Shown here one piece after another: positions 22,492 through 51,274 of a stretch of 64,000 bases of DNA; the first letter of the stretch is position 1; every line of letters begins with the position of its first letter. Source of the stretch: a virus (lineage: Duplodnaviria; Heunggongvirae; Uroviricota; Caudoviricetes); IMG/VR virus record IMGVR_UViG_3300013426_000020; one strand, 5' to 3'. Below the pieces are notes generated by a model. It had not been told where the DNA came from, did no database searches, and saw only the letters and a list, made by a program, of their open reading frames with translations. Both the position numbers and the translations under genes were made by a program.

Positions 22492-22523
22492 TTTGGAAGT
22501 TTGAAATAATTGTCGTATCTTTG
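22492..22523 (+). promoter_or_regulatory. class A promoter with conserved leader
   Basis: TTTGgaagTTTGaaataattgtcgTATCTTTGtatcaacaaataaaaacaaagacatttATG. Confidence 0.55.
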
Positions 22524-22550
22524 TATCAACAAATAAAAACAAAGACATTT

Positions 22551-22838
22551 ATGAAACTCAGTGAACTCAATTATGACAAGGTTTGTTCAATGTTGAACAA
22601 GAATAATTTCAGTATGCACTATGATGCATCAGACTGTTTGAGGGACATATACACGGAAAAGGGATTTGAAGAAGTCAAGTCTCAAATCATGGGTAGATAT
22701 GGAGATGTGGAGATATCGGTCAACCCCGGATCATACTGGTGGAATGAGGTGAAGATAGAGGACAAGAAATGGAATGATGACATGGATGTATTCAATAAGG
22801 AGAAACAGGCATGGTGCAGCAAATATGGATGTGATTAA
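22551..22838 (+). CDS. hypothetical protein
   Basis: ATG sits at the end of the conserved leader; the listed ORF start at 22452 lies inside the terminator. Confidence 0.5.
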   Translation: MKLSELNYDKVCSMLNKNNFSMHYDASDCLRDIYTEKGFEEVKSQIMGRYGDVEISVNPGSYWWNEVKIEDKKWNDDMDVFNKEKQAWCSKYGCD

Positions 22839-22856
22839 TGTAAAAATAAACATATT

Positions 22857-23366
22857 ATGAAAAGATTTTTTATTATTTTTGTTATGGTGATTATGTCAGT
22901 ATCATCTGCATTTTCACAGACTTATTCAGGACTTGAACCAAAATGGATCGAAAAGATTGTTCCTGCGGATGAACTGAAAGGAAATGATGAGTATACATTA
23001 TATTTTTATATGAACAGGAAAGATGAATATAGTGTAATGTATAGAGGAAATGATGAAAAGTACAGACTCATTTCAGTTCATTCTTATGAAGGTATCTTTG
23101 ATGCAAATTATAAAAATGAAATAGATAATGTTTTAATAGGATTTTATAGGGATGGTGAAATGAAATCAAAGATTTCTTTGACTGTCAGTACTTCAAAAGA
23201 CTATGAGGCATTGTTTATTCATGGAATGGATGGTTTGACAGTTATAACATGGCTTGAACATGGAGGAGATGTGAGAATAATTGCACCAAGATATAATAGG
23301 TCAAGTCTTGATGTCATGATTCCACATAGACTTGAGGACACAAAACCAGAGATTATAAATCAATAG
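22857..23366 (+). CDS. secreted protein
   Basis: Signal peptide MKRFFIIFVMVIMSVSSAFSQ. Confidence 0.55.
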   Translation: MKRFFIIFVMVIMSVSSAFSQTYSGLEPKWIEKIVPADELKGNDEYTLYFYMNRKDEYSVMYRGNDEKYRLISVHSYEGIFDANYKNEIDNVLIGFYRDGEMKSKISLTVSTSKDYEALFIHGMDGLTVITWLEHGGDVRIIAPRYNRSSLDVMIPHRLEDTKPEIINQ

Positions 23367-23369
23367 ATT

Positions 23370-23663
23370 ATGGAATTCAAACTGCCTGAGACATTGACGG
23401 TCGGAGGAATAGACTACGATGTCAAACAGAAAGACACCGGCAGGAATGGAGACTTCGGTTTCTGGGAATGCACAGGACACATAGAGATAGCGGACTCGAT
23501 TGCCGGAGAGAAGGTGTCGGAGTCCAGAAAGAGACAGAGCTTCTGGCATGAGCTGACACATGCCGTTCTTCACCAGATGGGGGAATATGATTTGTGCGAT
23601 GACGAGAAGTTCGTCAATACATTTTCATCGTTTCTTTCGGGAGCGGTGGACAGCATGAAATAA
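23370..23663 (+). CDS. small HExxH protein (DUF955/ImmA-like metallopeptidase motif)
   Basis: FWHELTHAVLHQMGE. Confidence 0.4.
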   Translation: MEFKLPETLTVGGIDYDVKQKDTGRNGDFGFWECTGHIEIADSIAGEKVSESRKRQSFWHELTHAVLHQMGEYDLCDDEKFVNTFSSFLSGAVDSMK

Positions 23664-23677
23664 AAAATAAAAAGATT

Positions 23678-23926
23678 ATGGATAGAGTATTATTTGAAAA
23701 GGCTGTCAAACTTGACAGGGACATAAACATATTGAAGAAGATTCAGGAGGATATTAGAAAATCTTCAAAATCCCATCTCAACTGGTGCGACTATAAAGAA
23801 AAACCCATATTGTCCGAATTCCAGAGGGACTTCATAAAGGACATACTGGAAAAACATGACATGCTGATGAGAGAGGAGATACAGGGTGAAATCAACAGAC
23901 TGGAGAACAAGATAAAGATGTTATGA
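23678..23926 (+). CDS. hypothetical protein
   Basis: 82-aa ORF. Confidence 0.45.
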   Translation: MDRVLFEKAVKLDRDINILKKIQEDIRKSSKSHLNWCDYKEKPILSEFQRDFIKDILEKHDMLMREEIQGEINRLENKIKML

Positions 23927-24282
23927 CAAGGGATGAAATCATAAGGGAATGCGAACTCGCATATCAAAGAAGGTTTCTTGAACTGACCGGACATAAGGAA
24001 GGGGACAAGGTGGATGTTCTGTTCCTGTCATATCATGGAACATCAAAGGAATGCAACAGTTCTTATGTAAGGGGGACCGGGACGATAGTTCTCACTGATG
24101 AAGGATATAAAATCAGGTCTGACAATGAATATCCCCAGCTTTGTGTGAAGAGAATGTATCCCAATAGCGTCGTGAATTTCAAGACATATAATGTTTATGA
24201 ACCGAAGACAGTTTATGCCGATATAACAGAAATGATCAGTTATAGAAATGTTGCCGAGAATAAGGAGAACGAAAGGATTTGA
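23923..24282 (+). CDS. hypothetical protein
   Basis: 119 aa; start overlaps the stop of the upstream gene (ATGA). Confidence 0.5.
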   Translation: MTRDEIIRECELAYQRRFLELTGHKEGDKVDVLFLSYHGTSKECNSSYVRGTGTIVLTDEGYKIRSDNEYPQLCVKRMYPNSVVNFKTYNVYEPKTVYADITEMISYRNVAENKENERI

Positions 24283-24572
24283 AAGGACATACGGAAAATA
24301 TGTAGTCTGCGATGATATTGTCATGACTTTCATGGATGCATTGAGATACTGGCTGTGGCATATGGGGGTGAACCCGAGAATTGCATTTTATAAATTCAAA
24401 AGGAAATGAAAATGAACAATATAGTCATAAGGAAATCTTCCGGATGGGAGAGGGACTACGGAAAATATATGGTCATCGACAATATGAATCTTACTGCGGA
24501 GTCTGTGGACAGTATTCCCGGTATGATGAGACTGTTGATAAGCAAGTTGAAGTTTATAAAAAATATTGAAAG

Positions 24573-24797
24573 ATGTTGCAGGTGATTGCGGAAATTGTGG
24601 CATGGATCGCAACCGTGTTCAGGGGAGCGGGAATGCTGATGAAGAATGCGGATATGGTGAAATATCTGGTCAGTGCCGGAAATCTGGGATGGCTGATCAA
24701 CGGGGCACTGACAGGAAATGTCCCGCTGATGGTCAGCAATGGATTCTGTCTGCTGGTGATGATGTATGAAATAATAATAAAAAAGATAAGGAAATGA
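24573..24797 (+). CDS. small membrane protein
   Basis: 74 aa with two transmembrane-like segments. Confidence 0.4.
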   Translation: MLQVIAEIVAWIATVFRGAGMLMKNADMVKYLVSAGNLGWLINGALTGNVPLMVSNGFCLLVMMYEIIIKKIRK

Positions 24798-25147
24798 AGG
24801 AACAGATGGGATACAAATGCGACTTCTGCGGAAAGATGTCATCGAGCAGAAGTGCAATGATGAGACATGAACAGGCATGCAGGAAGAATCCTGAAAATCT
24901 GTCAATGTGCGCGAGATGCAAGTTTCTCAGGAGGGATGAGGACTTCAGTTATAATTATCATGGTGAGCCTGTGAAGATGACAAGGATGATCTGCACATCA
25001 ACGGGGGACAGTCTTTATCACAACAGAGTGTTGAGGTTCGTCAACAAGGACATCACATATGAAATAGTGAAGCATTCCGACAGAAAGATGCCGAACATCA
25101 ATGAAGGATGCAGATATTTCAAACAGTATAATCCGGATGAGAAATGA
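24794..25147 (+). CDS. zinc-finger-like hypothetical protein
   Basis: YKCDFCGK...HEQACRKN is a C2H2-like pattern. Confidence 0.45.
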   Translation: MKEQMGYKCDFCGKMSSSRSAMMRHEQACRKNPENLSMCARCKFLRRDEDFSYNYHGEPVKMTRMICTSTGDSLYHNRVLRFVNKDITYEIVKHSDRKMPNINEGCRYFKQYNPDEK

Positions 25148-25341
25148 GCAGGACCATAAAACATCAGGACATATATGATGTCCTGCATGGAAGAAAAGTT
25201 TCTTACAGAAAGAGAATGAAAATATATAAATGGTTTGACAGAGTGAACTTTTGGGATCCCGACTTCAAGATAAACTACAGAAAGAGAAAGGACTGGAGAC
25301 ATGGCGGAATGTCCCGGATAAAGGCAAGGAGATACAAATGA
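25144..25341 (+). CDS. hypothetical basic small protein
   Basis: 65 aa, K/R-rich. Confidence 0.4.
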   Translation: MSRTIKHQDIYDVLHGRKVSYRKRMKIYKWFDRVNFWDPDFKINYRKRKDWRHGGMSRIKARRYK

Positions 25342-26063
25342 TTACATCAAGGGAGCACAGAATAGAGATATTGAATGAGAACATCAATATCTGCAATGAC
25401 AAGAATTTGAAACCAGAATTCCGGGGTGGACTGGTGTTTGGACCTACACATGTAGCATGTGCGGAAAATTTCATCAGGGAGGATGGTGATGAATATGACA
25501 GGTCGAGAGTCATATTCGAGCAAACCGACACGATAACATCCGCACTGAAATACAGAAGAAAAACAGGTGTTGACTTTCTTGTGTTCGCATCGTCCAGACA
25601 CTATGGCGGCGGGGTGTGGAACGGATCAAAGGCACAGGAGGAGGACATTTTTCTCTGCACCGATCTCTGTATGAATCATAAGGATGCACAGGAGAAATTC
25701 TATCCGTTGAACGGATGTATGACAATGGACTGTCATATCATCAGGGACTCGAATTTTGAAGTTCTGAAATATCCTGTCAATGCAAGGGCTTTCTTCTGTC
25801 CGGCACCAAATCTCAACTTGACAAATTCTGGTCATGACTTCTGGACAAGGATGTGTACATTTTCTGATACGACTTTTGACTATGCGAAGGGGGAATGTCT
25901 GGTGATAGGCGCATGGGGATGCGGAGTGTTCAAAAACAATCCTGAAGAAGTTGCGGATATGTTCAGGAAATCAATGTCCATGTTTCTGGAAGACTACAGG
26001 AATGTGGTTGTGTCCATACCTGATGAAAATATGTTAAACATATTCAAGAAAAAATTATCATGA
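25338..26063 (+). CDS. bacterial-type poly(ADP-ribose) glycohydrolase-like macrodomain (DUF2263/TIGR02452)
   Basis: PARG signature GGG-X8-QEE (HYGGGVWNGSKAQEEDIF) plus GAWGCGVFKNNPEEVA. Internal ATG of ORF 25251..26063. Confidence 0.65.
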   Translation: MITSREHRIEILNENINICNDKNLKPEFRGGLVFGPTHVACAENFIREDGDEYDRSRVIFEQTDTITSALKYRRKTGVDFLVFASSRHYGGGVWNGSKAQEEDIFLCTDLCMNHKDAQEKFYPLNGCMTMDCHIIRDSNFEVLKYPVNARAFFCPAPNLNLTNSGHDFWTRMCTFSDTTFDYAKGECLVIGAWGCGVFKNNPEEVADMFRKSMSMFLEDYRNVVVSIPDENMLNIFKKKLS

Positions 26064-26509
26064 AACACAGTTCAATAATAACAGACATAAAGATATGGCA
26101 TGAATCATATGATGATTACTGTCCGTTCTATCTTCACACAAGAAAGGGTGATGAATATATGACATGGGAATGGGAATTTCTTGGAATTTTCAGGATGGAG
26201 AAGAAGAAACATATTGCAGATCAGGATATGTTCGCATGCAAATGGTGGTCGGAAGGAAGATTGTATACAAACAATGAGTTAGAATTTGAGAATGATAAGT
26301 ATGAATACAGGAATGGAAAGTTCATCAGTCTGGCACATATGAGATTCTTGACCGGAGACGGAAAAACACATGTCTTATGGTTTCACAATGACAAGGATTG
26401 TTCAAGGGCATATGAATGGTTGAACGGAATATTGAAATCATATGGACTCAAGGACATAAATGACATCAAAAAATTCCTGAAGGATGAATTCGGTGCCATA
26501 GAATTATAA
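26060..26509 (+). CDS. hypothetical protein
   Basis: 149-aa ORF. Confidence 0.5.
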   Translation: MKHSSIITDIKIWHESYDDYCPFYLHTRKGDEYMTWEWEFLGIFRMEKKKHIADQDMFACKWWSEGRLYTNNELEFENDKYEYRNGKFISLAHMRFLTGDGKTHVLWFHNDKDCSRAYEWLNGILKSYGLKDINDIKKFLKDEFGAIEL

Positions 26510-26670
26510 AAGTTGTTATCTTTGTATATGATGAGACACATTTATTTTATTATAAACAACTTCACAGGATCAAGATATGGATGTTGGAGTTCAATAGAAG
26601 AGGCAGAATGTTACAGAAACATGCTTGATGACTGGATGAACTGGGATATAGGAATGGAAGAAAATTATTT

Positions 26671-28002
26671 TTGAAAATGAATAAACTGACACTTGAGAAC
26701 ATAAGGATAGAAGACCACAAGATTTATGACACTGACGGAAACTTTGTGGGTGAGATACTGTATGAGTATATTCGTGGTTCACGTTTATACAATATAAATC
26801 TTGAAGGATTCGATTCTGACGGCAATCCGCTTTCGGATGAAGATCATGGCGGAGTCTATATAATGACCGACAACAGGAAACTTGGTCTGGGACTTGACTA
26901 CCAGAACGAGATAAAGGATGAGAAGAATGACAACTGTCTATGGGAACTGGGCAGGTTTATGGAGCTTGCACTGACTTCCAACCCGACCGTTCTTGAAGCT
27001 TTGTTCGTTCCGGATGACAAGGTGATATATGAACATCCTGTGATGAAGGAGTTGAGGAGTCACAGGAATGAGTTTGTCTCGAAGGCGTGTTTCAAGCCTT
27101 ACTATATGTACTCTAAGAGTCAAATTTCCAAATCCAGAGGACAAAACAAGAAGATTCACTGGGACATCGAACAGATGAAGAGAAAGACTCCATTGGACTT
27201 CTGTTATACTTTCAAAGGTCAGGGATCCCAACTCATATCCGACTGGCTTGATGAGAATGGACTTGAACAGAGAAACTGTGGACTGGTGAATGTCCCGAAC
27301 ATGCCTGATATGTATGGAGTATATTATGACTGGGGTCAACATTTCAGGTTGAATGATATTGATATGATGAAATTCAGGGACAGTGACGAATATGAGAAGA
27401 TGAGACATTTCATTTCTTGTTTTTATTTTGACGGATATGCAGATGACTACAGTCTGGAGATATGGTACGAGAAGAATTCTGTCCCGAAGGGAGGATATAC
27501 AGGTATCATATCTCAAAATGAGGACTCCAACACCATAAGATACTGTTCTATTCCTGATAAGAATGAAAGACCGGTATGTTATATGTCATACAATGCCAAT
27601 GGATACGCGACACATTGCAGAAAATACAAAGAATATCTTGATTGGAAGAACCACAGGAACAAGGCGAGATACGAGTCGAATCTTGAAGGAGAGAAGTCCG
27701 GAAATCCGGATCTCATGTATGACTCCAAGAACATGATGCACTGTTTCAGGATGATTTCCATGGCGAAGGAGATTGCGGAAGGAAAGGGAATAATACTCGA
27801 CAGGACAGGAATCGACAAAGATTTCCTTATGGATGTGAGAATGAGAAGGTACGGTTATTCCGAACTGATGAAGAGACTTGAAAAGATGTCAAGAGAAATG
27901 GATGAGTCCATATGGAACTCAGTAATCAAAGAAAACATTGATCCGGAATTTGTGAACAATCTTCTGCTTGATATAAGAAAACAATGGAGGAAAAATATAT
28001 GA
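26671..28002 (+). CDS. putative pol-beta-superfamily nucleotidyltransferase-fold protein
   Basis: N-terminal RGSRLYNINLEGFDSD matches hG[GS]-x9-13-DxD. 443 aa. Confidence 0.35.
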   Translation: MKMNKLTLENIRIEDHKIYDTDGNFVGEILYEYIRGSRLYNINLEGFDSDGNPLSDEDHGGVYIMTDNRKLGLGLDYQNEIKDEKNDNCLWELGRFMELALTSNPTVLEALFVPDDKVIYEHPVMKELRSHRNEFVSKACFKPYYMYSKSQISKSRGQNKKIHWDIEQMKRKTPLDFCYTFKGQGSQLISDWLDENGLEQRNCGLVNVPNMPDMYGVYYDWGQHFRLNDIDMMKFRDSDEYEKMRHFISCFYFDGYADDYSLEIWYEKNSVPKGGYTGIISQNEDSNTIRYCSIPDKNERPVCYMSYNANGYATHCRKYKEYLDWKNHRNKARYESNLEGEKSGNPDLMYDSKNMMHCFRMISMAKEIAEGKGIILDRTGIDKDFLMDVRMRRYGYSELMKRLEKMSREMDESIWNSVIKENIDPEFVNNLLLDIRKQWRKNI

Positions 28003-28181: not shown

Positions 28182-28212
28182 TTTGTGAATTCTCCAGATT
28201 TCTTCAAGAAAA

Positions 28213-28244
28213 TTTGGAGAAATCATTTTTATATGCTATTTTTG
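28213..28244 (+). promoter_or_regulatory. class A promoter (variant -7 TATTTTTG)
   Basis: TTTG at 28213, 20 nt, TATTTTTG, then leader tatcaacaaataaaac. Confidence 0.45.
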
Positions 28245-28269
28245 TATCAACAAATAAAACAACATCATT

Positions 28270-30408: not shown

Positions 30409-30457
30409 TGAAGTTCACAGAAATCAAAAAAAAAATCTTCAAATTCTTGACAAAAGA

Positions 30458-30489
30458 TTTGGAGATTTCATTTTTTTGTCGTATCTTTG
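30458..30489 (+). promoter_or_regulatory. class A promoter
   Basis: TTTG at 30458, 20 nt, TATCTTTG at 30482. Confidence 0.5.
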
Positions 30490-30515
30490 TGTCAGGAAAT
30501 AAAACAAGAGACATT

Positions 30516-33049: not shown

Positions 33050-33147
33050 AAACTTTGTTATATTTATTGTGAATGCAGGAAGAACCTGCGCATAATGTTG
33101 TTTGTTTTGATTTTTTGACACCATTGGTTTGACGGGCGGGTGTCGTG

Positions 33148-33189
33148 CGGAGAGAATGTCGTGATGATATTCTCTCCGTTTTTTTTTTG
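33148..33189 (+). terminator. Rho-independent terminator
   Basis: Hairpin cggagagaat...attctctccg followed by T11. Confidence 0.6.
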
Positions 33190-33207
33190 AAAAAAGTTTG
33201 ATTTTTG

Positions 33208-33239
33208 TTTGGAAGTTTGAAATAATTATCTTATCTTTG
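33208..33239 (+). promoter_or_regulatory. class A promoter
   Basis: TTTG at 33208, 20 nt, TATCTTTG at 33232. Confidence 0.5.
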
Positions 33240-33265
33240 TATCAACAAATAAAGGCAATGACATT

Positions 33266-35713: not shown

Positions 35714-35773
35714 ACCATCAAAATTCAAATCATAATCATATTTCCGGAACATTTAAATTCTTTCAAAAAAAGA

Positions 35774-35805
35774 TTTGGATGTTTCGGTTTTTTGTTGTAT
35801 CTTTG
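35774..35805 (+). promoter_or_regulatory. class A promoter
   Basis: TTTG at 35774, 20 nt, TATCTTTG at 35798. Confidence 0.5.
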
Positions 35806-35828
35806 TATCAAGAAAACAAATACAAGTT

Positions 35829-37707: not shown

Positions 37708-37790
37708 TGGTCGTTTTTTGACGGTGCGATTGACGTATTGTTCATTTTAGTTGTTTTTATTGTTGAAACCATCAAATTTTTTCAAAAAAG

Positions 37791-37823
37791 TTTGGTGGTT
37801 TCATTTTTTTTGGTGTATCTTTG
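37791..37823 (+). promoter_or_regulatory. class A promoter
   Basis: TTTG at 37791, 21 nt, TATCTTTG at 37816. Confidence 0.45.
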
Positions 37824-37878
37824 CAATGTGGTTAGGATAATCACAAGGCAACATGTCAGCCTATATGAATGACACAAT

Positions 37879-38100
37879 ATGATTTATATCATGAAAAACA
37901 GGATTTCAATTTTTGACTTCAGTTTTATGCCTGCGGGATTCGGACACTACAAGGTAACATACACCAGTCCGGTGACATTTAAGAAATGGACATGTGTCAC
38001 ACCAAATATGATGCTGATAGATGCAACCAAGAATGCAGACAGTCCAAAGGTGAAGGATCTCAATGAGTTGAAGAGGATCTGCAAAAATTCACTCAAATAA
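37879..38100 (+). CDS. hypothetical protein
   Basis: 73-aa ORF. Confidence 0.4.
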   Translation: MIYIMKNRISIFDFSFMPAGFGHYKVTYTSPVTFKKWTCVTPNMMLIDATKNADSPKVKDLNELKRICKNSLK

Positions 38101-38114
38101 AAATGATACAAAGA

Positions 38115-38146
38115 TTTGGATAATTCAATTTTTATCCTTATCTTTG
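38115..38146 (+). promoter_or_regulatory. class A promoter, 'ggataattcaatttttatcc' subfamily (copy 1 of 3 tandem cassettes)
   Basis: TTTG at 38115, 20 nt, TATCTTTG at 38139. Confidence 0.5.
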
Positions 38147-38193
38147 TATCAAGAAATAAAAACAAAGTCAAACAATAAAAAAACACACAGATT

Positions 38194-38520: not shown

Positions 38521-38547
38521 AAAAATTTGAAAAAGTTGATGCAAAGG

Positions 38548-38579
38548 TTTGGATAATTCAATTTTTATCCTTATCTTTG
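38548..38579 (+). promoter_or_regulatory. class A promoter (copy 2)
   Basis: About 80 nt nearly identical to copy 1. Confidence 0.5.
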
Positions 38580-38605
38580 TATCAAGAAATAAAAACAACA
38601 AGATT

Positions 38606-39050: not shown

Positions 39051-39075
39051 AAAGTTTGAAAAAATGATGCAAAGA

Positions 39076-39107
39076 TTTGGATAATTCAATTTTTATCCTT
39101 ATCTTTG
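39076..39107 (+). promoter_or_regulatory. class A promoter (copy 3)
   Basis: Nearly identical to copies 1 and 2. Confidence 0.5.
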
Positions 39108-39132
39108 TATCAAGAAATAAAAACAAAAACAA

Positions 39133-41135: not shown

Positions 41136-41174
41136 GTTGAGGGTCTTGAGAAAAAGATCCTCAACTTTTTTTTG
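41136..41174 (+). terminator. Rho-independent terminator
   Basis: Hairpin gttgagggtcttgag...gatcctcaac followed by T9. Confidence 0.6.
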
Positions 41175-41191
41175 AAAAAGTCTGACTTTTA

Positions 41192-41223
41192 TTTGCATGT
41201 TTGAAATAATTGTTGTATCTTTG
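41192..41223 (+). promoter_or_regulatory. class A promoter
   Basis: TTTG at 41192, 20 nt, TATCTTTG at 41216, plus the canonical leader. Confidence 0.5.
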
Positions 41224-41363
41224 TATCAACAAATAAAAACAAAGACATTATGAAAAAGGTTAACATTACAATCAACACATCATCAGACAAAATGATTGAA
41301 TCACTCCGGAATCTGGCGGACTTCATAGAGGAGAATATGGAGATGTAATAGATTAAACATAAA

Positions 41364-41726
41364 ATGAATAACATGAAAATTTTTATAATCATACTGCTGG
41401 CAATCCTCGCCGGAATTGTAATAGGATTGAAGCTTGACCATATCCATCACAGAAACCAGGTTCTCGATAAGACTTTCGGTGTCAGACTGCTCGGATTCTT
41501 GCAGGACTTTCATAAGGATGCCGGACAATGGTCTCAAATGGATCAGGAGGAATATGAGTATCTCTGTATCTCAGCCATCAATGAAATAGAGAATGATTTT
41601 GATGACATCAGCAACTGGTGGTATTTCCAGAATATGGTGAAGGGATGCACTACATATACCGAATTTATAGAGAAGAAATACGATGCGGACTTTGTCAGGT
41701 TCCTGCACAACATAAGAAAGTTCTGA
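41364..41726 (+). CDS. hypothetical protein with N-terminal TM
   Basis: 120-aa ORF. Confidence 0.5.
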   Translation: MNNMKIFIIILLAILAGIVIGLKLDHIHHRNQVLDKTFGVRLLGFLQDFHKDAGQWSQMDQEEYEYLCISAINEIENDFDDISNWWYFQNMVKGCTTYTEFIEKKYDADFVRFLHNIRKF

Positions 41727-41728
41727 TT

Positions 41729-42229
41729 ATGGAAATGAAAGAAATGTGGATCTTCGTTGAATTCGGCGACAACGATTTCGCAAAGAATATGGAATATGCA
41801 GGAGACAAGTATGCCGATACATACAACAATGTCATCTTGAGAATGAAACGACTTCCGGAGATGGAGACTATGGACACAAGACTTTCAATGAAAGAATGTG
41901 TGAAAAGGATGACGGACACGGAATGCATCAAGAACATACTTGAGAATGGATATGTGATGTCATGTATCAATGACAATCTGTCTGGATACTACCCTATTCT
42001 GAAAGTTGATGATGTGATACAAAATTCAAGGACTGAGCTTGAATGCCTCGATTTGAACGGCAAGATACATATATTTGACAATGAAGATGACTGTCTGACT
42101 TACATAGTCTCACATTTTGCATCATTGCAGGACAAGGATTATGATGGAAGTTTCAATAAACTCCAGTGCAATGGCGAATGTCTCGTGATGTGGACTGACA
42201 ATGGATGGATGAGATCAAAAGTGATATAA
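41729..42229 (+). CDS. hypothetical protein
   Basis: Internal ATG of ORF 41618..42229. Confidence 0.45.
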   Translation: MEMKEMWIFVEFGDNDFAKNMEYAGDKYADTYNNVILRMKRLPEMETMDTRLSMKECVKRMTDTECIKNILENGYVMSCINDNLSGYYPILKVDDVIQNSRTELECLDLNGKIHIFDNEDDCLTYIVSHFASLQDKDYDGSFNKLQCNGECLVMWTDNGWMRSKVI

Positions 42230-42750
42230 TTTTCTTGTTCATATTTTTATTTTGTTCAGATGACCGGTGAAAGTTGATTTCACTGGTCATCTCTTTTGTC
42301 TACCAGAAGACTGATTTCATATATACCCCTGTTTGTCATTTTCAGGGGTAATACAGACACTTTCAGGTGAAAATGGTATAATTACTCATCTTGATGATTT
42401 GAACTGAAAATAGACAGGTTTCTGTGAGTTTTCTGTTTCTGACAATCAAGACTGACAAAAATGTCAATATAAAAATGAATATACTGACAAAATGTCAAAA
42501 ATAATAACTTATTGATTATCAATATTTATAACAATGATGTTTCATTTTTCATAAATTGTTATGTTATTGATTATGAATAAGATAAATTCAAAAAATGGCT
42601 CGTTTGTTATATTATATAATATATAGAATAATAATAAAATTTCTAGTTAACTATAAGAAAATAAATTATTTAAAAGAATTTTATTAAGAATTTTTTAATA
42701 GAGTTTAACAGCGGAGCTAACAGAAAATGATGATCATTTTGTCAGTTTTA

Positions 42751-42782
42751 TTTGTCAATGTCATTTTTTATTCTTATCTTTG
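42751..42782 (+). promoter_or_regulatory. class A promoter
   Basis: TTTG at 42751, 20 nt, TATCTTTG at 42775. Confidence 0.45.
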
Positions 42783-42810
42783 CATCAAGAAAAAAGAAAA
42801 AAGAAAAGAT

Positions 42811-43260
42811 ATGGGAATATTGAATGACATAGTGAAACGGGATTTGAATGGTGGTGTCAAAAAAGAAGATGAATTTGAGGTGTATTTCCCGAACAATAAC
42901 CACGGAAAGTGTATGAGACTTCTCAAGAGAGAAGAATATCATGGTGTCAATTACACTATAATGACTTCCGGAGACTATCCGTTCATCGATATTACCGTTA
43001 TGGGTGGAAATGTCGGGACAGATAATTATGTCGAGATGAATATCCGTGACCGTATGGGTCGCATAAGGACAGTGCATGTTAAGAGAATTGAAGAGTTTGG
43101 TGGATATGACAACTGGAAGATTGTATATAACTCATATTGGGACTACATTCCAAGAGTTGTGAATGGACAGGTGCATACTGTGGAAAGTCTTACGGAGGAT
43201 GCGGAATCATATATAGATCAGATTCTGCAAAAAAAGTTTGAAATTTGTTTGGAAGTTTGA
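42811..43260 (+). CDS. hypothetical protein, 'MGILxDIxxRDLxGG' N-terminal family member 1
   Basis: N-terminus MGILNDIVKRDLNGGVKKED. Confidence 0.5.
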   Translation: MGILNDIVKRDLNGGVKKEDEFEVYFPNNNHGKCMRLLKREEYHGVNYTIMTSGDYPFIDITVMGGNVGTDNYVEMNIRDRMGRIRTVHVKRIEEFGGYDNWKIVYNSYWDYIPRVVNGQVHTVESLTEDAESYIDQILQKKFEICLEV

Positions 43261-43279
43261 AATTTTTGTAGTATCTTTG
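43248..43279 (+). promoter_or_regulatory. class A promoter
   Basis: TTTG at 43248, 20 nt, TATCTTTG at 43272. Confidence 0.5.
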
Positions 43280-43311
43280 CATCAAGAAAAACAAATAAAA
43301 CAGACAAGATT

Positions 43312-45388: not shown

Positions 45389-45401
45389 AAAAGTTTATAT
45401 T

Positions 45402-45666: not shown

Positions 45667-45698
45667 CTTGGAAGTTTGAAAAAATTGTTGTATCTTTG
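45667..45698 (+). promoter_or_regulatory. class A promoter (-33 variant CTTG)
   Basis: cTTG at 45667, 20 nt, TATCTTTG at 45691. Confidence 0.45.
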
Positions 45699-45724
45699 TA
45701 TCAACAAATAAAAACAAAGACATT

Positions 45725-45901
45725 ATGAAGACAATAATTTTTATACTTCTTGGGGTACTGACAGGAATAGGTTGCATCAATTTCTTTATCTCCGCAATCG
45801 CTTCATTGCTCGTTTTCTCCATAGGTGGACTGCTGATAAACGGACTTCTGTGCTATGCATCCGGTCTGTTGACAAAGAAGATGTTTGAAAATGCAAAATA
45901 G
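45725..45901 (+). CDS. small membrane protein (58 aa, not in track)
   Basis: Hand-translated MKTIIFILLGVLTGIGCINFF... Confidence 0.35.
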   Translation: MKTIIFILLGVLTGIGCINFFISAIASLLVFSIGGLLINGLLCYASGLLTKKMFENAK

Positions 45902-45907
45902 ATTCTT

Positions 45908-46321
45908 ATGCAGGAACTGGACACATATCAGCTGATGGAACAGCTGATGAGAAAATCAAAGGATGAGGTGGAAAATGTGATTCTGCATCTGATGCTGAAT
46001 CCGGATAAAACAAAGCGAATAGACTCCCACAGGATTCTTGATCTCTATATGAAATCCATAGAAATCCAGATTATGGACATAAAGGACAGACTGACGGAAA
46101 GCAATTCGTGTATTCTGGATCTTCTCCTCAACTTCAAGAAGGAGACTGAAAACAATTCAAAGTCCATTCACAGGGCATTGCATGATCTCAATGAGTCGAG
46201 ACAGTTCAATATGAAGAGTCTCAACGAGAAGTACGGATATGACAGGGAAAAGGACAGGTCTTTGTCATGGTATGAAAAGGAAAAGGAATATAAGGAATTT
46301 CAGTTTGACTATGATGAATAA
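45908..46321 (+). CDS. hypothetical protein
   Basis: 137-aa ORF. Confidence 0.5.
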   Translation: MQELDTYQLMEQLMRKSKDEVENVILHLMLNPDKTKRIDSHRILDLYMKSIEIQIMDIKDRLTESNSCILDLLLNFKKETENNSKSIHRALHDLNESRQFNMKSLNEKYGYDREKDRSLSWYEKEKEYKEFQFDYDE

Positions 46322-46841
46322 TGATTTTGACAAGATGTTCCTCGATTCATTGAAGATGGAACTCAACACACAGGACTGTTATGGACAAATGCAGCCATGT
46401 TATTGGATTGTGATGGAACACAGACATGTGCCGGCAAGATCATGTGATGCTGATGAATATAGAATATTTGATGACAGCACCGCATATGATGTGCAGGAAT
46501 TCATATGCAAGATAAAAGATGAAGTCTATCCGCAATTTACGGATTCGCAGAAGAAGGAATGGAATACAATCATTGATGAAGATTATCTTTGCATGGAGGA
46601 TGACATGGTTGATTTTCTCAATGGTACTGAATTTTATAGTGATTTGCAGGTTGTTCCTTATATGGAGAAGGACATTGAGAACTATGACGGTGGAATCTTT
46701 CTTACGGAGAAGGACTGTGCCGACTGGATAAAGAGAAACAAGCACAATCTGGTGGAACCGAGACCTTATGCGAAGACGATGCACGACAATCCTGTGATGT
46801 CCAGACTTATTGACATAGTGAGAAAGACCGACTGGCTTTGA
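46311..46841 (+). CDS. hypothetical protein
   Basis: Internal ATG of ORF 46239..46841. Confidence 0.45.
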   Translation: MMNNDFDKMFLDSLKMELNTQDCYGQMQPCYWIVMEHRHVPARSCDADEYRIFDDSTAYDVQEFICKIKDEVYPQFTDSQKKEWNTIIDEDYLCMEDDMVDFLNGTEFYSDLQVVPYMEKDIENYDGGIFLTEKDCADWIKRNKHNLVEPRPYAKTMHDNPVMSRLIDIVRKTDWL

Positions 46842-46869
46842 ACTGAAATCAAATGAAATATAGAGACTT

Positions 46870-47112
46870 ATGGGAAGATTCAAGAAAGGAGATATAGTGG
46901 TCAATCTATGGACAGAAAAGAAAAGTCCTGTACACAAAGGTGTATACATAGGAAACGGAACGGTGATGTTCCCTTATAAGTTTCACAGGTCTGATTTCGG
47001 TATGGACAGACTTGAGAACGATATGGAACATTTTGTGAAGGTGGGACATTGTCCTGTTGAGGATTTGTTCAAGGAGATGCTGGAACATTATACTGACAAC
47101 AAGGAGATATAG
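46870..47112 (+). CDS. hypothetical protein
   Basis: 80-aa ORF. Confidence 0.45.
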   Translation: MGRFKKGDIVVNLWTEKKSPVHKGVYIGNGTVMFPYKFHRSDFGMDRLENDMEHFVKVGHCPVEDLFKEMLEHYTDNKEI

Positions 47113-47116
47113 AAAC

Positions 47117-47302
47117 ATGATGACTTTATTGATTATACTGATGTGTCTTGTGCTTGTCCTGCTTTTGACAGGACTCAAGATATCTGATGGAATTCTGGGA
47201 ACAATTATACAGATTCTGGTAATCATACTTGCATTGACTTTCATCATCATGTTCATAGGAATGATTATGTTCATGTTTTGTTTGATATTCACATTGTTTT
47301 GA
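47117..47302 (+). CDS. small membrane protein
   Basis: Internal ATG of ORF 47057..47302. Confidence 0.4.
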   Translation: MMTLLIILMCLVLVLLLTGLKISDGILGTIIQILVIILALTFIIMFIGMIMFMFCLIFTLF

Positions 47303-48020
47303 ATTCATAATTTTTGTTTTTGTTTGCATGGAAGATCAGGAAGTGATTCTTGATCTTCTTTTTTATACACAACAGGATACAACAAACCGGGACTGACTCA
47401 AATCATTTGAAAAAAGACTGAACCAGACCAGAATTCACCGGTCAATAAACCAGAAGCAAGTATGTGATTATAAACTATTTACTGGAAAAACTGTAATTGA
47501 CTATGAAAAACTGTAATCAAGTTATGATATTTGATATCAAGAAATCAAACTATATGACTTTATTTTTGACTTGTATGAAAACTGAATGACGATTATGAAA
47601 CTCACATATGATTATATGAAACTATGATGATTATAAAGATCATATACACTATGTAACTCACACAAAAGATTTTGACTAACAAAACTTATATGGACTATAA
47701 ACTATGTTGCGATGCGAAACTTACGGAAAAACTATATGACTGAAAAATGAACCGATTGATTATACTATATAACTGATGCAAATAAACTTCATTGACTTAC
47801 AAACCGACTATATCGACTATCATACTGATGTATATAAACTTTCCGTTCAACTATTATATTTATGTGATCGACATTTTCAGTTTTTCATATTTTCTTTGAA
47901 TGTTTCAAAACAGACATTTTTCACATTTCAAGAATTTTTTCCTAAAGGGATTTTTCAAAAATGGTCAGTCAAGAGTGTACTAAAAGGGACATTTCATATA
48001 TTTCATAAAAAAGTTCATCA
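47303..48020. repeat. non-coding AT-rich region with short direct repeats (iteron-like)
   Basis: gaaaaactgtaat occurs twice (about 47480 and 47504), aaactatatgact occurs twice (about 47548 and 47730), and there are many tatgaaa/ctatat units. No ORF. Confidence 0.4.
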
Positions 48021-48024
48021 AAAA

Positions 48025-48056
48025 TTTGGAAGTTTGAAATAATTGTTGTATCTTTG
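48025..48056 (+). promoter_or_regulatory. class A promoter
   Basis: TTTG at 48025, 20 nt, TATCTTTG at 48049. Confidence 0.5.
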
Positions 48057-48082
48057 TATCAACAAATAAAAGCAAAGACATT

Positions 48083-48238
48083 ATGGAAGAGACAAAGACA
48101 ATTACTGTGAGGTTCAAGGAAACCTATATGACACATCCTGTGGAGAGAACCTGCACGAACATGACAAGGGATCAGGTCATGGACATCTACAATCTTGATG
48201 ATCCGGACATAGAGTGGTATGAATTCATAAGGGGATAA
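48083..48238 (+). CDS. small hypothetical protein (51 aa, not in track)
   Basis: Hand-translated MEETKTITVRFKETYMTHPVERTCTNM... Confidence 0.3.
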   Translation: MEETKTITVRFKETYMTHPVERTCTNMTRDQVMDIYNLDDPDIEWYEFIRG

Positions 48239-48242
48239 GGTT

Positions 48243-48530
48243 ATGTGGTATATAGAGGAATGGACTGATATGATTGGAAATGGTCATACATCAATCCTTA
48301 CAGAAGACGAGCACTCCACATTGATGTGTTCCTCAACTGTGGTCTTCAAGTCAAATGACTATAATGAGGTGAAAAAGAGATATGACGGAATGACGGAATC
48401 TGTCAAGTCAAGGACAAGAAAGGAGATACTTGAAAAGATGAGAAAGTTGAGAGACAACTCCATTGAAAGAAATGAGATACTGAATGATCTCAACAGGATA
48501 TTGAAGAAATATGAAGAAATTCTCAAATAA
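48243..48530 (+). CDS. hypothetical protein
   Basis: 95-aa ORF. Confidence 0.5.
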   Translation: MWYIEEWTDMIGNGHTSILTEDEHSTLMCSSTVVFKSNDYNEVKKRYDGMTESVKSRTRKEILEKMRKLRDNSIERNEILNDLNRILKKYEEILK

Positions 48531-48531
48531 A

Positions 48532-48563
48532 TTTGGAAGTTTGAAATAAAAGCGTTATCTTTG
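48532..48563 (+). promoter_or_regulatory. class A promoter
   Basis: TTTG at 48532, 20 nt, TATCTTTG at 48556. Confidence 0.5.
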
Positions 48564-48605
48564 TATCAACAAAAAGAAAGTCAAACAAATAAAAAATAAA
48601 GAATT

Positions 48606-49175
48606 ATGAAAGTTTATGAGATTGTCTATGTAAAGGCAAACGGAGAAATCACCACGGAGATTTTCAAGAACTTGAAAGCTGCAAGGGAAAGGATGTTGAG
48701 AATAGGAAGATGCACGGAGGAAATTGTTCGTAATGCATATAATGCTGCATCGGTCAAGATTGAAGACAACAAATACACCGTCAAGGGTTTCAATGACGAC
48801 AAAAAGACTGTCGTGGAAATCACAGTCAATGAGAAGGAAGTCAAGGAAGTAAGCAGATATGTCGTAAGAGTTCCCGTGAAGACCTATGTCGATGTACAGG
48901 TGGATGCGATGGATGAGAGTGAGGCAAAGAAGATTGCACAGGATTCCGGACTGTGGGATGAGGATCAGCTGTTGCTGAACTGTGAACCGAGTGGAGAACC
49001 AGAGATGGTGAAGACAAGAAAGGTTGAGGTTGAATGGGATGTGGATGACGAGGATGAACTTGATGATCTTCCGGAGGTTGTCGATGTTCCGGAGGACATA
49101 TGCGAGGACGATGTGGCGGACTGGCTGTCTGACAATTATGGATATTGTGTGAGTGACTGGGGATATATGGAATAA
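48606..49175 (+). CDS. hypothetical protein, acidic C-terminus
   Basis: 189-aa ORF. Confidence 0.5.
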   Translation: MKVYEIVYVKANGEITTEIFKNLKAARERMLRIGRCTEEIVRNAYNAASVKIEDNKYTVKGFNDDKKTVVEITVNEKEVKEVSRYVVRVPVKTYVDVQVDAMDESEAKKIAQDSGLWDEDQLLLNCEPSGEPEMVKTRKVEVEWDVDDEDELDDLPEVVDVPEDICEDDVADWLSDNYGYCVSDWGYME

Positions 49176-49187
49176 AGAAATAAGCAG

Positions 49188-49284
49188 ACTGATATGGGTC
49201 TAATGGAATAAGACCACGAGACGGATGCATACGTCTATGTCTCTATATGAGACCGGGATACAGGTTCGAGTCCTGTTGTCAGTC
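49188..49284 (+). tRNA. tRNA-like gene with non-canonical (8-nt) anticodon loop and long variable arm; identity unresolved
   Basis: Acceptor actgata/tgtcagt (one U-G), U8, D-stem ggtc/gacc, anticodon stem agacg/cgtct with loop gatgcata, variable stem gtctc/gagac, T-arm acagg-TTCGAGT-cctgt. T-run downstream. Confidence 0.4.
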
Positions 49285-49461
49285 CTATACGTTCATAATC
49301 AGTTTTTTTTGACGGGACGGAAATGTTCCGCAATGGAATGAAGTCCGTCCCTTTATGTTGAAAATATCTTTTATTCATTAAATATTAATATTATAATTTG
49401 ACATTGTCTCCCGTATGTTGTGAAATATGTGGGAGATTTTTTATATAAAAATATGAAAAAA

Positions 49462-49493
49462 TTTGCATATATGAAATGATTGGTGTATCTTTG
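49462..49493 (+). promoter_or_regulatory. class A promoter
   Basis: TTTG at 49462, 20 nt, TATCTTTG at 49486. Confidence 0.45.
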
Positions 49494-49522
49494 TGATACA
49501 AAACAAATAAACAAACAAGGTT

Positions 49523-50131
49523 ATGAAAAAGATTATCATTCCTATGATGATTATTATGTCATCATGTTCAGTGCAGAGAACATTCACATCTACAATAAGA
49601 TGCACAGGAGATATTGTGTGGATGAACGATTCCGGAGATGAAGTGATGAGATGGGAGAATTCTGTGATTGACAGTACTGTGTTGCAGACATATGATTTTT
49701 ATGATGGTTCAAGGACAAGCAAAGTCATAAAGAATTCTTTGGATAGAAATGATGGTGAGTTTGTCAAATTCACATCTGGAGGGAAGACAATGATGATTTC
49801 CGGAGGTATGATATTGATAAGCAATATAAGATCAGAAAGTACTGAAATGAATATGCAGAAACAATCTATTTATAAGGAAATAGATGATTTTGTTTATGAA
49901 CAGACAGGAATAAGATATGTGGATACATCCTATGATTATGCATTGATAGATATATATGTGCTTGCGGGAAAGAAACTGAATATAGTGGAGTTCATCAAAG
50001 AGTTTGAAAAAAGGTTTGATATAGTCACACGGTACAGACATGTCCCACAGATGACTTCAACCATATATGATCTTTATGATATTGTAATCTGGTGTAAGTT
50101 GTTTCCAGAGACGGAAACATACGAAAAATGA
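49523..50131 (+). CDS. secreted/lipoprotein
   Basis: MKKIIIPMMIIMSSCS signal plus Cys. Confidence 0.5.
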   Translation: MKKIIIPMMIIMSSCSVQRTFTSTIRCTGDIVWMNDSGDEVMRWENSVIDSTVLQTYDFYDGSRTSKVIKNSLDRNDGEFVKFTSGGKTMMISGGMILISNIRSESTEMNMQKQSIYKEIDDFVYEQTGIRYVDTSYDYALIDIYVLAGKKLNIVEFIKEFEKRFDIVTRYRHVPQMTSTIYDLYDIVIWCKLFPETETYEK

Positions 50132-50336
50132 TCAAAAGGTGTTTATTTTCCACATCCATTGAAAAATTCTGTATACAGATCTTTCAAAACTTATGATCCA
50201 TTTTACTCTTTTTTGACATTTCAAGAGTTTTTTGTTATCTTTATATAAAACATATACATTATACATTATTATAATCATCAAGTCTGGTCAGTCGTGAGAT
50301 TCATCAGACTTTTTATAAAAAAATCAAAAAAAAAAG

Positions 50337-50368
50337 ATTTGGATATTTCATTTTTTATCCTTATCTTT
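50337..50368 (+). promoter_or_regulatory. class A promoter ('ggata...tttttatcc' subfamily)
   Basis: TTTG at 50337, 20 nt, TATCTTTG at 50361. Confidence 0.5.
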
Positions 50369-50412
50369 GTATCAACAAAAGAAACAAGATAAACATATAA
50401 AAACAAAAGATT

Positions 50413-50667
50413 ATGAAGACAAGAAAGATTGACATCGATGAACTCAAGGAACTTCTCAAGAATGGAGAGGTCAAGTTCGAGTATCTCAAAAAGGACGGCA
50501 CGGTCCGCACCGCAAGGGGAACAATGAAGTCTGACATCATCACACCGAGACTGAAAGGAGGAAAATCCACTGTGGGTGATTCCGGATACACGGTCTATTA
50601 TGACCTTGACAAGGATGCTTTCCGTTGTTTCGCAGAATCTAGACTTGTGGGTGTGGTTGAGGAATAA
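50413..50667 (+). CDS. hypothetical protein
   Basis: 84-aa ORF. Confidence 0.5.
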   Translation: MKTRKIDIDELKELLKNGEVKFEYLKKDGTVRTARGTMKSDIITPRLKGGKSTVGDSGYTVYYDLDKDAFRCFAESRLVGVVEE

Positions 50668-50696
50668 GTAAAACAAGGAAACTATGAATCTTCTTC

Positions 50697-50945
50697 ATGG
50701 TTTCCATAAATGAAATCAATATGAAAGTTTGTGAACTCATAGACAAGTTGCGGGAATTCAATCCTACAGCTGAAGTATTTGTCCGTGCGGACGACAGACG
50801 TATCTTGGTGTCCGGAATATATTCATGGTCATCTGCTCCCGGGGATAACCCTAGGGACTATAATATGGCAAAATCAAAGATGCACACACCGAGAGTCACC
50901 CTTGAAACGGACGGAAACGATTATGAAGTCATATGCAATGACTGA
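50697..50945 (+). CDS. hypothetical protein
   Basis: 82-aa ORF. Confidence 0.45.
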   Translation: MVSINEINMKVCELIDKLREFNPTAEVFVRADDRRILVSGIYSWSSAPGDNPRDYNMAKSKMHTPRVTLETDGNDYEVICND

Positions 50946-51144
50946 AAATTATACAAAAGGTAGAATTTTTCATCTTCAAGTCAGTGAACTGACTTTGACT
51001 GAAATTATACAAAAAGGAGTATTTTTTCTTTGACTGAAATTTTTTCTGTACACTTTTTCAAAACATCAAGAAAAAATTATACAAAAAGGAGTATTTTGAC
51101 ATTTTTGACATTCAACTGAAAATTATTCAAAAGGTAGAATTTTT
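50941..51144. repeat. array of four ~26-nt direct repeats AAATTATACAAAARGKAGWATTTT (iteron-like)
   Basis: Copies at about 50945, 51001, 51074 and 51119; in addition tttgactgaaatt occurs twice. Confidence 0.5.
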
Positions 51145-51242
51145 TATTTTTAAATATCATTTGGGTCTATTATTTTTTGTTCCGGGTTCTGTTGTGAAAC
51201 AAAATCCGGAAAACTTTTTTTTTCAAATTTTCTTCAAATAAA

Positions 51243-51274
51243 TTTGCATATATGAAATAAAAGCTGTATCTTTG
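51243..51274 (+). promoter_or_regulatory. class A promoter
   Basis: TTTG at 51243, 20 nt, TATCTTTG at 51267, plus the canonical leader. Confidence 0.5.

Follow-up and report, generated by a model that had tools for sequence, protein, structure and literature searches.

We analysed a 64,000-nt stretch of DNA (hereafter, the window) from the IMG/VR virus record IMGVR_UViG_3300013426_000020 (Caudoviricetes) and found in it 21 copies of a short intergenic cassette, each combining a promoter motif of the Bacteroidota type with a leader that ends at a start codon, and 13 of them also carrying a terminator-like hairpin. The array is quite probably best described as the Bacteroidota counterpart of the promoter-early stem-loop (PeSL) units of T4-type phages, that is, as promoter-terminator-leader cassettes that would be driven by the host and recombine with one another. 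A first-pass annotation of the window had already captured the essence of these elements as promoters joined to a translation leader; it contained neither the layout in which a terminator lies within the promoter nor a putative role at recombination junctions.

A host-type promoter motif at 21 sites

Searching for TTTG-N20-TAYYTTTG gave 19 exact matches in the window, none of them on the - strand, where shuffles that preserve dinucleotides predict 0.17 +/- 0.38. Relaxing the spacing to N19-22 added the site at 37791, with a spacer of 21 nt, and the 21st site, at 45667, has CTTG rather than TTTG as its -33 box. The overall pattern is therefore (T/C)TTG-N20/21-TA(T/C)(C/T)TTTG, on the + strand throughout, with TTTG at 20/21 sites and a spacer of exactly 20 nt at 20/21. 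The first-pass annotation had reported 21 sites, 20 of them with a 20-nt spacer; both counts hold, and the -7 box positions that it listed deviate by no more than 1 nt. The -7 element TAnnTTTG (TAHHTTTG) is present in every copy, as TATCTTTG in 20 and as TATTTTTG in one, and TATCTTTG occurs 23 times on the + strand of the window (20 of them in cassettes) and three times on the - strand. All 21 sites are intergenic, lie on the coding strand and point at the downstream gene, with 14-68 nt between the box and the ATG of an open reading frame (ORF) that has at least 32 codons. Alignment of the copies at the -7 box gives the consensus aTTTGgA..TtTgAaaTttTtgt..TATCTTTGtATCAA.AAAtaAAAa.Aaa.acAt.at, in which the promoter boxes are the invariant letters and positions -20 to -13 are variable. 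The A+T fraction of the 24 nt 5' of the -33 box is 0.81, compared with 0.63 for the whole window. Below, cassettes are named by the position of the -33 box.

In Bacteroides promoters, the -33 and -7 boxes are 19-21 nt apart. The published Bacteroidota consensus, TTTG / TAnnTTTG, comprises T-12, A-11, T-8, T-7, T-6 and G-5, with no G at the two n positions; tracts rich in A+T lie around -18 and -28 (Baez et al. 2019, PMC6847099). The cassettes resemble promoters of the primary sigma factor, sigma-A(Bfr), in both boxes, in the 19-21 nt spacing, in having H at the n positions, in the AT-rich tracts near -18 and -28 and in their predicted leadered transcripts. They differ in being far more uniform, given the near-constant TATCTTTG and 20-nt spacer, and in adding TTTGGA, subfamily-specific spacers and yATCAA at the predicted start. 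Sigma-70-type promoters, in contrast, were not enriched in the window (88 versus 75.6 +/- 8.4 in shuffles). Since letters, spacing, orientation and position before genes all match, the motif is a putative promoter, close to the consensus, for the primary sigma factor of the host, as the first-pass annotation had proposed. By the numbering of PMC6847099, transcription is predicted to start at the A of tatcA, 5 nt past the box.

The same annotation had pictured insulated single-gene cassettes, which does not agree with the gene arrangement: the units headed by a cassette are mostly operons of 1 to 14 ORFs (median ~5), and only 5/21 have a single ORF. The genes downstream are small and almost all lack a Pfam match. 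Seventeen of the 21 cassettes lie at 22-52 kb, which is also the region most rearranged with respect to relatives. A wider motif search recovered cassettes in relatives of the phage (see below); the 7 kb that precede the window and the 10-kb - strand block that follows it contain none.

Isolated -7-type boxes without a -33 TTTG occur at 26517 and 63460 (- strand). At 26517, TATCTTTG sits 3 nt 5' of the ATG at 26528, and TATGTTTG precedes the - strand genes at 61.9-63.5 kb. These isolated boxes may be weaker or differently regulated promoters.

An A-rich leader without Shine–Dalgarno motif

Most cassettes had been said to share a near-identical leader. The full 26-nt form (up to 3 mismatches) is confined to 6/21 sites (22524, 33240, 41224, 45699, 48057 and 51275), whereas yATCAAsAAA directly past the box is common to 16/21. 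The predicted 5' untranslated region has a modal length of 22 nt and consists of 63% A and 10% G. A is found in 86/90/86% of leaders at -14/-13/-12, in 67% at -3 and in 52% at -6, and a Shine–Dalgarno (SD)-like motif in only one of the 21. Over 22 nt, cassette leaders contain 13.9 A, compared with 10.3 for the other genes (p = 2e-7). The leader together with the first codons is essentially unfolded (-0.1 to -0.2 kcal/mol), and the mean folding energy of cassettes is -2.0 kcal/mol, compared with -3.2 kcal/mol in the remaining genes (p = 0.065). No significant structure was seen in the divergent leaders at 37828-37890 and 5580-5655 (z-scores relative to shuffled sequences of -1.1 and -0.8, respectively). 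At cassette 37791, the divergent 55-nt leader (37824-37878) contains G and is conserved in the related contig L041.

Experiments support A-12, A-13, A-3 and A-6 as positive determinants of SD-independent initiation in Flavobacterium johnsoniae (Baez et al. 2019, PMC6847099). The phage leaders have in common with that initiation region the A-tract at -14 to -11, A at -3, low structure and the lack of an SD; they depart from it at -6, where A occurs in only about half of the cassettes, and in a preference for T at -1/-2 that is not described there. Judged by base composition and predicted folding, the cassette leader thus fits the SD-less translation initiation of Bacteroidota, one of the functions that the first-pass annotation had offered for it. 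T at -1/-2 is seen in 76-81% of cassettes and in 58-70% of the other genes of the window. These other genes have the same start pattern in weaker form, T at -1 and -2 included; the leader is therefore an intensified form of the phage's general translation start and no separate element.

Terminators, shared bases and palindromes

Folding and sequence place a terminator-like hairpin with a T-run at 13/21 sites, nine upstream of the promoter and four overlapping the -33 box. Their z-scores range from -1.9 to -5.8, and an independent terminator scan recovered four of them, one with the overlapping layout. The statement that most cassettes are preceded by a hairpin and T-run is hence correct only when the four overlapping hairpins are counted. 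The nine type I sites have a hairpin that contains G+C, then 5-10 T in a row and, ~10-25 nt further on, the -33 box; the stem sequences all differ and the structure is kept. In type II (28213, 30458, 35774 and 37791), a 12-18-bp hairpin (folding free energy, dG, -12.8 to -20.3; z -2.8 to -5.8) holds the -33 TTTG in its 3' arm, and its T-run is the promoter spacer. The spacers of the form "...TTTCATTTTTTT" are explained in this way, as the 3' arm and T-run of a terminator, a compact arrangement whereby one terminator and the promoter that follows it would have bases in common.

Type III comprises the subfamily B cassettes 38115, 38548 and 39076 and, in weaker form, 50338. It has a 46-nt palindrome that spans -41 to +1, GATACAAAGAT-TT-GGATAA-N8-TTATCC-TT-ATCTTTGTATC (dG -20.9, z -8.5), with no T-run after it. 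The block that the first-pass annotation had assigned to all four is an identical 32-mer at the first three sites, whereas 50338 has the variant GGATATTTCATTTTTTATCC. One pair of the palindrome reads A-U, G-U or G-C across the copies and the relative L041. The other five cassettes comprise four in which no hairpin is evident and one (-7 box at 43272) whose hairpin lacks a T-run. The 21 cassettes are as follows.

Cassette 1, 5502..5643 (+): hairpin ~5502-5531 followed by T10, z -3.9; -33 box 5544; -7 box 5568-5575; box-to-ATG distance 68 nt; ATG 5644, opening a 412-aa HATPase_c_3 protein.
Cassette 2, 15125..15217 (+): weak AU-rich hairpin 15125-15153 with T-run, z -2.6; -33 box 15172; -7 box 15196; box-to-ATG distance 14 nt; ATG 15218.
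Cassette 3, 22447..22550 (+): subfamily A with canonical leader; hairpin 22447-22480 followed by T10, z -4.6; -33 box 22492; -7 box 22516; ATG 22551; heads ~14 ORFs.
Cassette 4, 28186..28269 (+): type II; hairpin 28186-28225, dG -15.5, z -3.7, the 3' arm holding the -33 box (28213); T-run in spacer; -7 box TATTTTTG at 28237; ATG 28270; perfect 15-bp stem in the L036 orthologue.
Cassette 5, 30433..30515 (+): type II; hairpin 30433-30468 overlapping the -33 box at 30458, dG -12.8, z -2.8; T7 in spacer; -7 box 30482; ATG 30516.
Cassette 6, 33147..33265 (+): subfamily A; terminator 33147-33179 followed by T10, z -5.6; -33 box 33208; -7 box 33232; ATG 33266.
Cassette 7, 35744..35828 (+): type II; hairpin 35744-35787 containing the -33 box at 35774, dG -18.1, z -4.5; T6 in spacer; -7 box 35798; ATG 35829.
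Cassette 8, 37764..37878 (+): type II with 21-nt spacer; hairpin 37764-37803 containing the -33 box at 37791, dG -20.3, z -5.8; T8 in spacer; -7 box 37816; divergent 55-nt leader; ATG 37879.
Cassette 9, 38105..38193 (+): subfamily B; 46-nt palindrome 38105-38150 spanning -41..+1, dG -20.9, z -8.5; -33 box 38115; -7 box 38139; ATG 38194.
Cassette 10, 38538..38605 (+): subfamily B; palindrome 38538-38583; -33 box 38548; -7 box 38572; ATG 38606.
Cassette 11, 39066..39132 (+): subfamily B; palindrome 39066-39111; -33 box 39076; -7 box 39100; ATG 39133, opening a DUF8033 protein.
Cassette 12, 41136..41249 (+): canonical leader; terminator 41136-41165 followed by T8, z -4.7; -33 box 41192; -7 box 41216; ATG 41250; recombination junction relative to L041.
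Cassette 13, 42751..42810 (+): without terminator; -33 box and spacer contain TGTCA motifs; -7 box 42775; ATG 42811; recombination junction relative to L041 and L042.
Cassette 14, 43248..43311 (+): subfamily A; upstream hairpin ~43200-43229 without T-run; -7 box 43272; ATG 43312; recombination junction relative to L041.
Cassette 15, 45667..45724 (+): subfamily A with -33 variant CTTG and canonical leader; -7 box 45691; ATG 45725; recombination junction relative to L041.
Cassette 16, 48025..48082 (+): subfamily A; leader canonical except for 1 mismatch; -7 box 48049; ATG 48083; recombination junction relative to L041.
Cassette 17, 48532..48605 (+): mosaic, subfamily A beside the -33 box and AAAAGC beside the -7 box; -7 box 48556; box-to-ATG distance 42 nt; ATG 48606.
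Cassette 18, 49406..49522 (+): subfamily C (GCATATATGAAAT); terminator 49406-49437, z -4.1; -33 box 49462; -7 box 49486; ATG 49523.
Cassette 19, 50280..50412 (+): B-like variant; hairpin ~50280-50311 then TTTTTAT, z -3.8; weaker palindrome 50333-50368; -33 box 50338; -7 box 50362; ATG 50413, opening a WYL_2 protein.
Cassette 20, 51180..51300 (+): mosaic of subfamily C spacer and canonical leader; hairpin 51180-51211 followed by T9, z -3.3; -33 box 51243; -7 box 51267; ATG 51301.
Cassette 21, 57969..58059 (+): subfamily A-like; hairpin 57969-57997 followed by T10, z -1.9; -33 box 58008; -7 box 58032; box-to-ATG distance 20 nt; ATG 58060.

A palindrome of this kind raises the question of whether the subfamily spacers, the 46-nt palindrome and the leader are binding sites for phage regulators, with the subfamilies as regulons; such a regulator could act as a dimer, repressing or activating, and define temporal classes, or it could repress translation through the leader in the manner of RegA. 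The stability of the palindrome far exceeds that of its shuffles, the palindrome is retained in L041, and the TGTCA motifs of cassette 42751 recur as TGACA-N4-TGTCA palindromes 250-300 nt upstream. On the other hand, covariation in the palindrome is not significant (174/500 shuffles reach the observed score), the type II spacers are already accounted for by terminators, and no candidate regulator was identified. Taken with the comparative evidence below, we consider this explanation unlikely.

Mosaicism and homogenisation of the cassettes

Pattern scans recovered relatives of the phage on one contig from IMG/VR (L032/L036) and on five from metagenomes (L040-L044). These contigs match the window patchwise, at 70-98% identity, and are strongly mosaic, with ~16 distinct rearrangements between them and the window, most of which are insertions or deletions of whole genes at ordinary gene boundaries. 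For three of the ~16, both junctions fall in cassettes and the alignments overlap (41271/43230, 45717/48026 and 42737/35822; p ~0.03, the chance if junctions fell on random gene boundaries). In the first event, 41250-43247 was lost between cassettes 41192 and 43248; in the second, cassette 45667 was fused to the gene of cassette 48025; and in the third, 42327-42737 was translocated, with junctions in cassettes 42751 and 35774. Orthologous genes may also bear a cassette of another subfamily, or two in tandem. Tandem cassettes 54-70 nt apart stand before single genes at 2574/2628 and 4656/4726 of L041 and at 3053/3109 of L042, and include a subfamily that is not in the window (CTTGGAATTGTCAAATAACTTCC).

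Such mobility, together with the sharp borders of these multi-copy 60-100 nt sequences, could also be expected of a small mobile or duplicated element, resembling a miniature inverted-repeat transposable element, whose remnants have no expression function. The arrangement of the copies speaks strongly against it: 21/21 are oriented with their gene and end 14-68 nt before its ATG, the invariant letters are exactly the promoter boxes while -20 to -13 varies, and the hairpin stems vary in sequence with the structure kept. No terminal inverted repeats or target duplications were seen at the copies, and cassettes are kept at orthologous positions in relatives that are 70-90% identical. We therefore rejected this scarcely credible alternative because of the orientation and position of the copies.

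The comparison with relatives also bears on the proposal of regulator sites. Between orthologous cassettes, leader identity is 65-81%, compared with 64-82% for the adjacent coding DNA, and cassettes are swapped between orthologous genes. The exact leader sequence is thus under no special constraint, and recent copying or gene conversion explains the identical copies better than would a strict site for the regulator that had been suggested. The -33-side half of the spacer (GAAGTTTGAAAT and others) is, however, kept between orthologues, in contrast to -20 to -13, as regulator binding would have it.

Within the window, the copies have been homogenised. The base at -4 is T in 15/21 window cassettes; the divergent relatives have C there in every cassette, eight orthologous pairs among them, and L042 has T at -4 only within 1.6 kb that is 98% identical to the window. 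The -33-side block, the -7-side block and the leader occur in all combinations among the window copies. These patterns point to cassettes that evolve in concert via recombination or gene conversion, which would account most simply for the identical 26-nt leaders; for the base at -4, selection specific to the lineage is an alternative. Along L042, identity to the window is 98% at 1-1619 and drops to 71-84% at 1680-4242, suggesting recent recombination between diverged phage lineages.

Upstream of cassette 42751 lies a non-coding, very AT-rich stretch of ~450 bp (42300-42760), with two TGACA-N4-TGTCA palindromes (~42453 and ~42485) and palindromes of the TTGATTATCAA type (~42510 and ~42566). Its TGTCA motifs recur inside cassette 42751. 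The stretch is 69-89% conserved in relatives and occupies another genomic position in L041/L042; it could be an origin-like or operator region.

The same signals in other phages and bacteria

The exact 37-mer of cassette plus leader is absent from IMG/VR. A second IMG/VR lineage (L007, L010, L011, L023, L030 and L004) has 1.7-2.7 cassettes per kb, nearly every small gene having its own hairpin, T-run and TTTG-N20-TA(T/C)CTTTG, followed by a leader of ~17 nt with 70% A before the ATG. Its conserved spacer is its own, TTTGcaagttaaatttatttcatt, and in the stretches that were fetched no similarity to the window was seen at the protein level. When one cassette was compared by BLAST with catalogued phages, the matches were mostly to phages of Bacteroidota hosts. 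A microvirus from pig gut (L056; MG945337.1, 1514-1575) shares TTTGGATATATCAAATAATTGTTGTATCTTTGTAT...ATTATG, and Prevotella phage Lak-B3 (L057) and Lak phages share much of the microvirus string. Both strings are very close to the subfamily A/C cassettes of the window (AAATAATTGTTGTATCTTTGTAT...ATTATG), reflecting either convergence of phages of the same host group or exchange between them. A match in Chryseobacterium phage MA9V-1 was rejected, as it has a -7 box and an A-rich leader without a -33 TTTG; a 45-kb stretch of that genome has no cassettes.

The extended motif of subfamily A, TTTGGAAGTTTGAAAT-N8-TATCTTTG, was found in 3 of ~185,000 bacterial species genomes and is therefore no common form of host promoter. 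The matches are two Prevotella bins and one Parabacteroides bin (L037), in the last of which the motif lies directly before tRNA-Met. On a 256-kb IMG/VR contig (L033/L034), the extended motif TTTGGAAGTTTGAAA(T/A) with TATCTTTG stands directly 5' of tRNA genes, and in L035 it lies 5' of sequence of unassigned identity. An Rfam search at the gathering threshold returned only tRNAs in the window and at six loci with the extended motif. That unrelated phages have AAATAATTGTTGTATCTTTGTAT in common suggests an optimum for the host polymerase rather than a phage-specific operator, a further argument against regulator sites, and the Prevotella, Parabacteroides and Lak matches hint at a Prevotella-like host.

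These matches also help to decide which polymerase would read the motif. Were it a phage-encoded RNA polymerase or sigma factor, the likeness to the host consensus would be coincidence or mimicry. For the transcription of early genes, crAss-like phages encode an RNA polymerase of the virion, and the closest relative of the helicase encoded in the window is from such a phage. Yet both boxes and their spacing match the host consensus, the same extended motif stands in bacterial genomes, before a tRNA gene in one of them, and it recurs in a microvirus that encodes no polymerase. The Pfam hits, which cover the window and its flanks incompletely, include no sigma or RNA polymerase domain. Transcription of the cassettes by a phage enzyme is, on balance, very improbable.

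Comparison with PeSLs and a proposed mechanism

PeSLs are composite units, ~50 per genome in T4-type phages, that consist of an early promoter with sigma-70 consensus, an AT-rich upstream stretch, a stem-loop terminator, an SD and a start codon; the stem-loop lies upstream of, between or overlapping the promoter boxes (Arbiol et al. 2010, PMC2839356; Comeau et al. 2014, PMC4122927). They mostly precede ORFans in hyperplastic regions and mediate modular shuffling (PMC2839356, PMC4122927). The cassettes described here are alike in being short units that join a promoter for the primary sigma factor of the host to a stem-loop (here recognised by folding and sequence), in their AT-rich upstream stretch (0.81) and in a translation signal that ends at the ATG. 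They likewise fall into subclasses by the placement of the stem-loop relative to the boxes, and stand mostly before ORFans without assigned function in a plastic region. Copy-to-copy recombination with swaps of modules may be a further likeness, although direct evidence for it is modest, with 3/~16 rearrangements clearly from cassette to cassette. They differ in having a Bacteroidota -33/-7 promoter instead of sigma-70 -35/-10 boxes, and an A-rich SD-less leader instead of an SD; moreover, the phage is not T4-like, whereas the carriers of PeSLs are T4-type myoviruses with encapsidated mini-circles. The relationship is one of analogy, in that the cassettes appear to work like PeSLs without belonging to them by descent.

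Other precedents are P_BfP1E6, a B. fragilis phage promoter in use as a synthetic-biology part, which with its native ribosome binding site gives very strong constitutive expression across Bacteroides species, and the -33/-7 promoters predicted in B. fragilis phage Bf12P1. The former is a functional precedent for such cassettes, likened to them by description and not by sequence. A literature search of incomplete coverage found no paper on such promoter or cassette arrays in Bacteroidota or crAss-like phages.

In the mechanism that we propose, the hairpin and T-run (13/21) would stop transcription arriving from upstream, and TTTG-20 nt-TATCTTTG would recruit the host RNA polymerase with its primary sigma factor. 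The ~22-nt A-rich, SD-less leader would then drive SD-independent initiation through A at -14 to -12 and -3. The outcome would be strong, insulated expression of operons of 1-14 small genes by the host polymerase, probably early or in the middle of infection. Recombination or gene conversion between cassettes would keep them nearly identical, and their homology would make junctions for the insertion, deletion, translocation and replacement of gene modules.

Several observations weigh against this mechanism. Eight cassettes have no convincing terminator. About 13/16 rearrangement junctions lie at ordinary gene boundaries, and junction ends fall in cassettes in ~19%, equal to the 20% of gene boundaries that have a cassette; the case for an enrichment of junctions in cassettes consequently depends on the three events whose two ends both fall within cassettes. 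The conserved -33-side half of the spacer goes beyond a two-box promoter model. Finally, the helicase is nearest to that of a crAss-like phage (33% identity), from a polymerase-bearing group, and a phage polymerase may transcribe part of the genome.

An extended version, in which the array is a combinatorial code, appears rather unlikely to us. In it, the subfamily spacers and B palindromes would be operators or RNA hairpins read by phage factors, and gene conversion would move the modules. If true, each subfamily would have its own timing and each class would be kept uniform by active gene conversion, with promoter-plus-gene modules moving between phages of the same host; the near-identity with the microvirus suggests that such exchange might cross phage families.

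As PeSL-like, host-driven units, the cassettes would extend the idea of regulatory cassettes that double as recombination substrates for accessory genes beyond T4-like phages and sigma-70 hosts. The 21 natural near-consensus promoter-leader units, and many more from the relatives and the second lineage, belong to a phylum whose expression signals are unlike the E. coli paradigm, and could serve for annotating transcription units of Bacteroidota phages and as parts for Bacteroides and Prevotella engineering. They do not overturn current understanding; the system is real and tidy and brings no new principle.

The phage and its gene content

The window has a G+C content of ~37% and a GC skew that is positive over almost its whole length, and its genes lie nearly all on the + strand. 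No catalogued phage matched at the nucleotide level when 35 kb of the window were compared by megablast, and a protein-based locus search of IMG/VR with the helicase found nothing; the best helicase match was to an uncultured crAss-like phage (33% identity, as above). Exact-protein look-ups placed the same phage on many metagenomic contigs, the longest of 119 kb. Beyond the 3' end of the window, a - strand block encodes large collagen-like products and a 1264-aa product and is taken to comprise the structural genes. The window itself is a long + strand block of non-structural, ORFan-rich genes from a phage of at least 119 kb, probably a large gut phage of Bacteroidota, the host of which we infer to be a bacterium of the Bacteroidales, probably Prevotella-like.

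Six tRNA genes (Tyr, Thr, Ser, Leu, Glu and Ser) are clustered at the start of the window (464-4212), in a region that also has an Mfa-like fimbrillin gene (2822-3871). The proteins recognised in the window include a Dda-like helicase, a D12 methyltransferase, an IMPDH/GMP-reductase-like enzyme, an M42 peptidase, Stealth and LicD proteins (glycan modification), an RlaP nucleotidyltransferase and a TROVE-like protein. A homologue of SmpB, the partner of transfer-messenger RNA, at ~58880-59325 adjoins the TROVE/DUF2828 protein at 59371-60951. PARG-like, RlaP, Band_7, LicD and Stealth proteins are encoded elsewhere in the phage, making for an unusual set of auxiliary genes.

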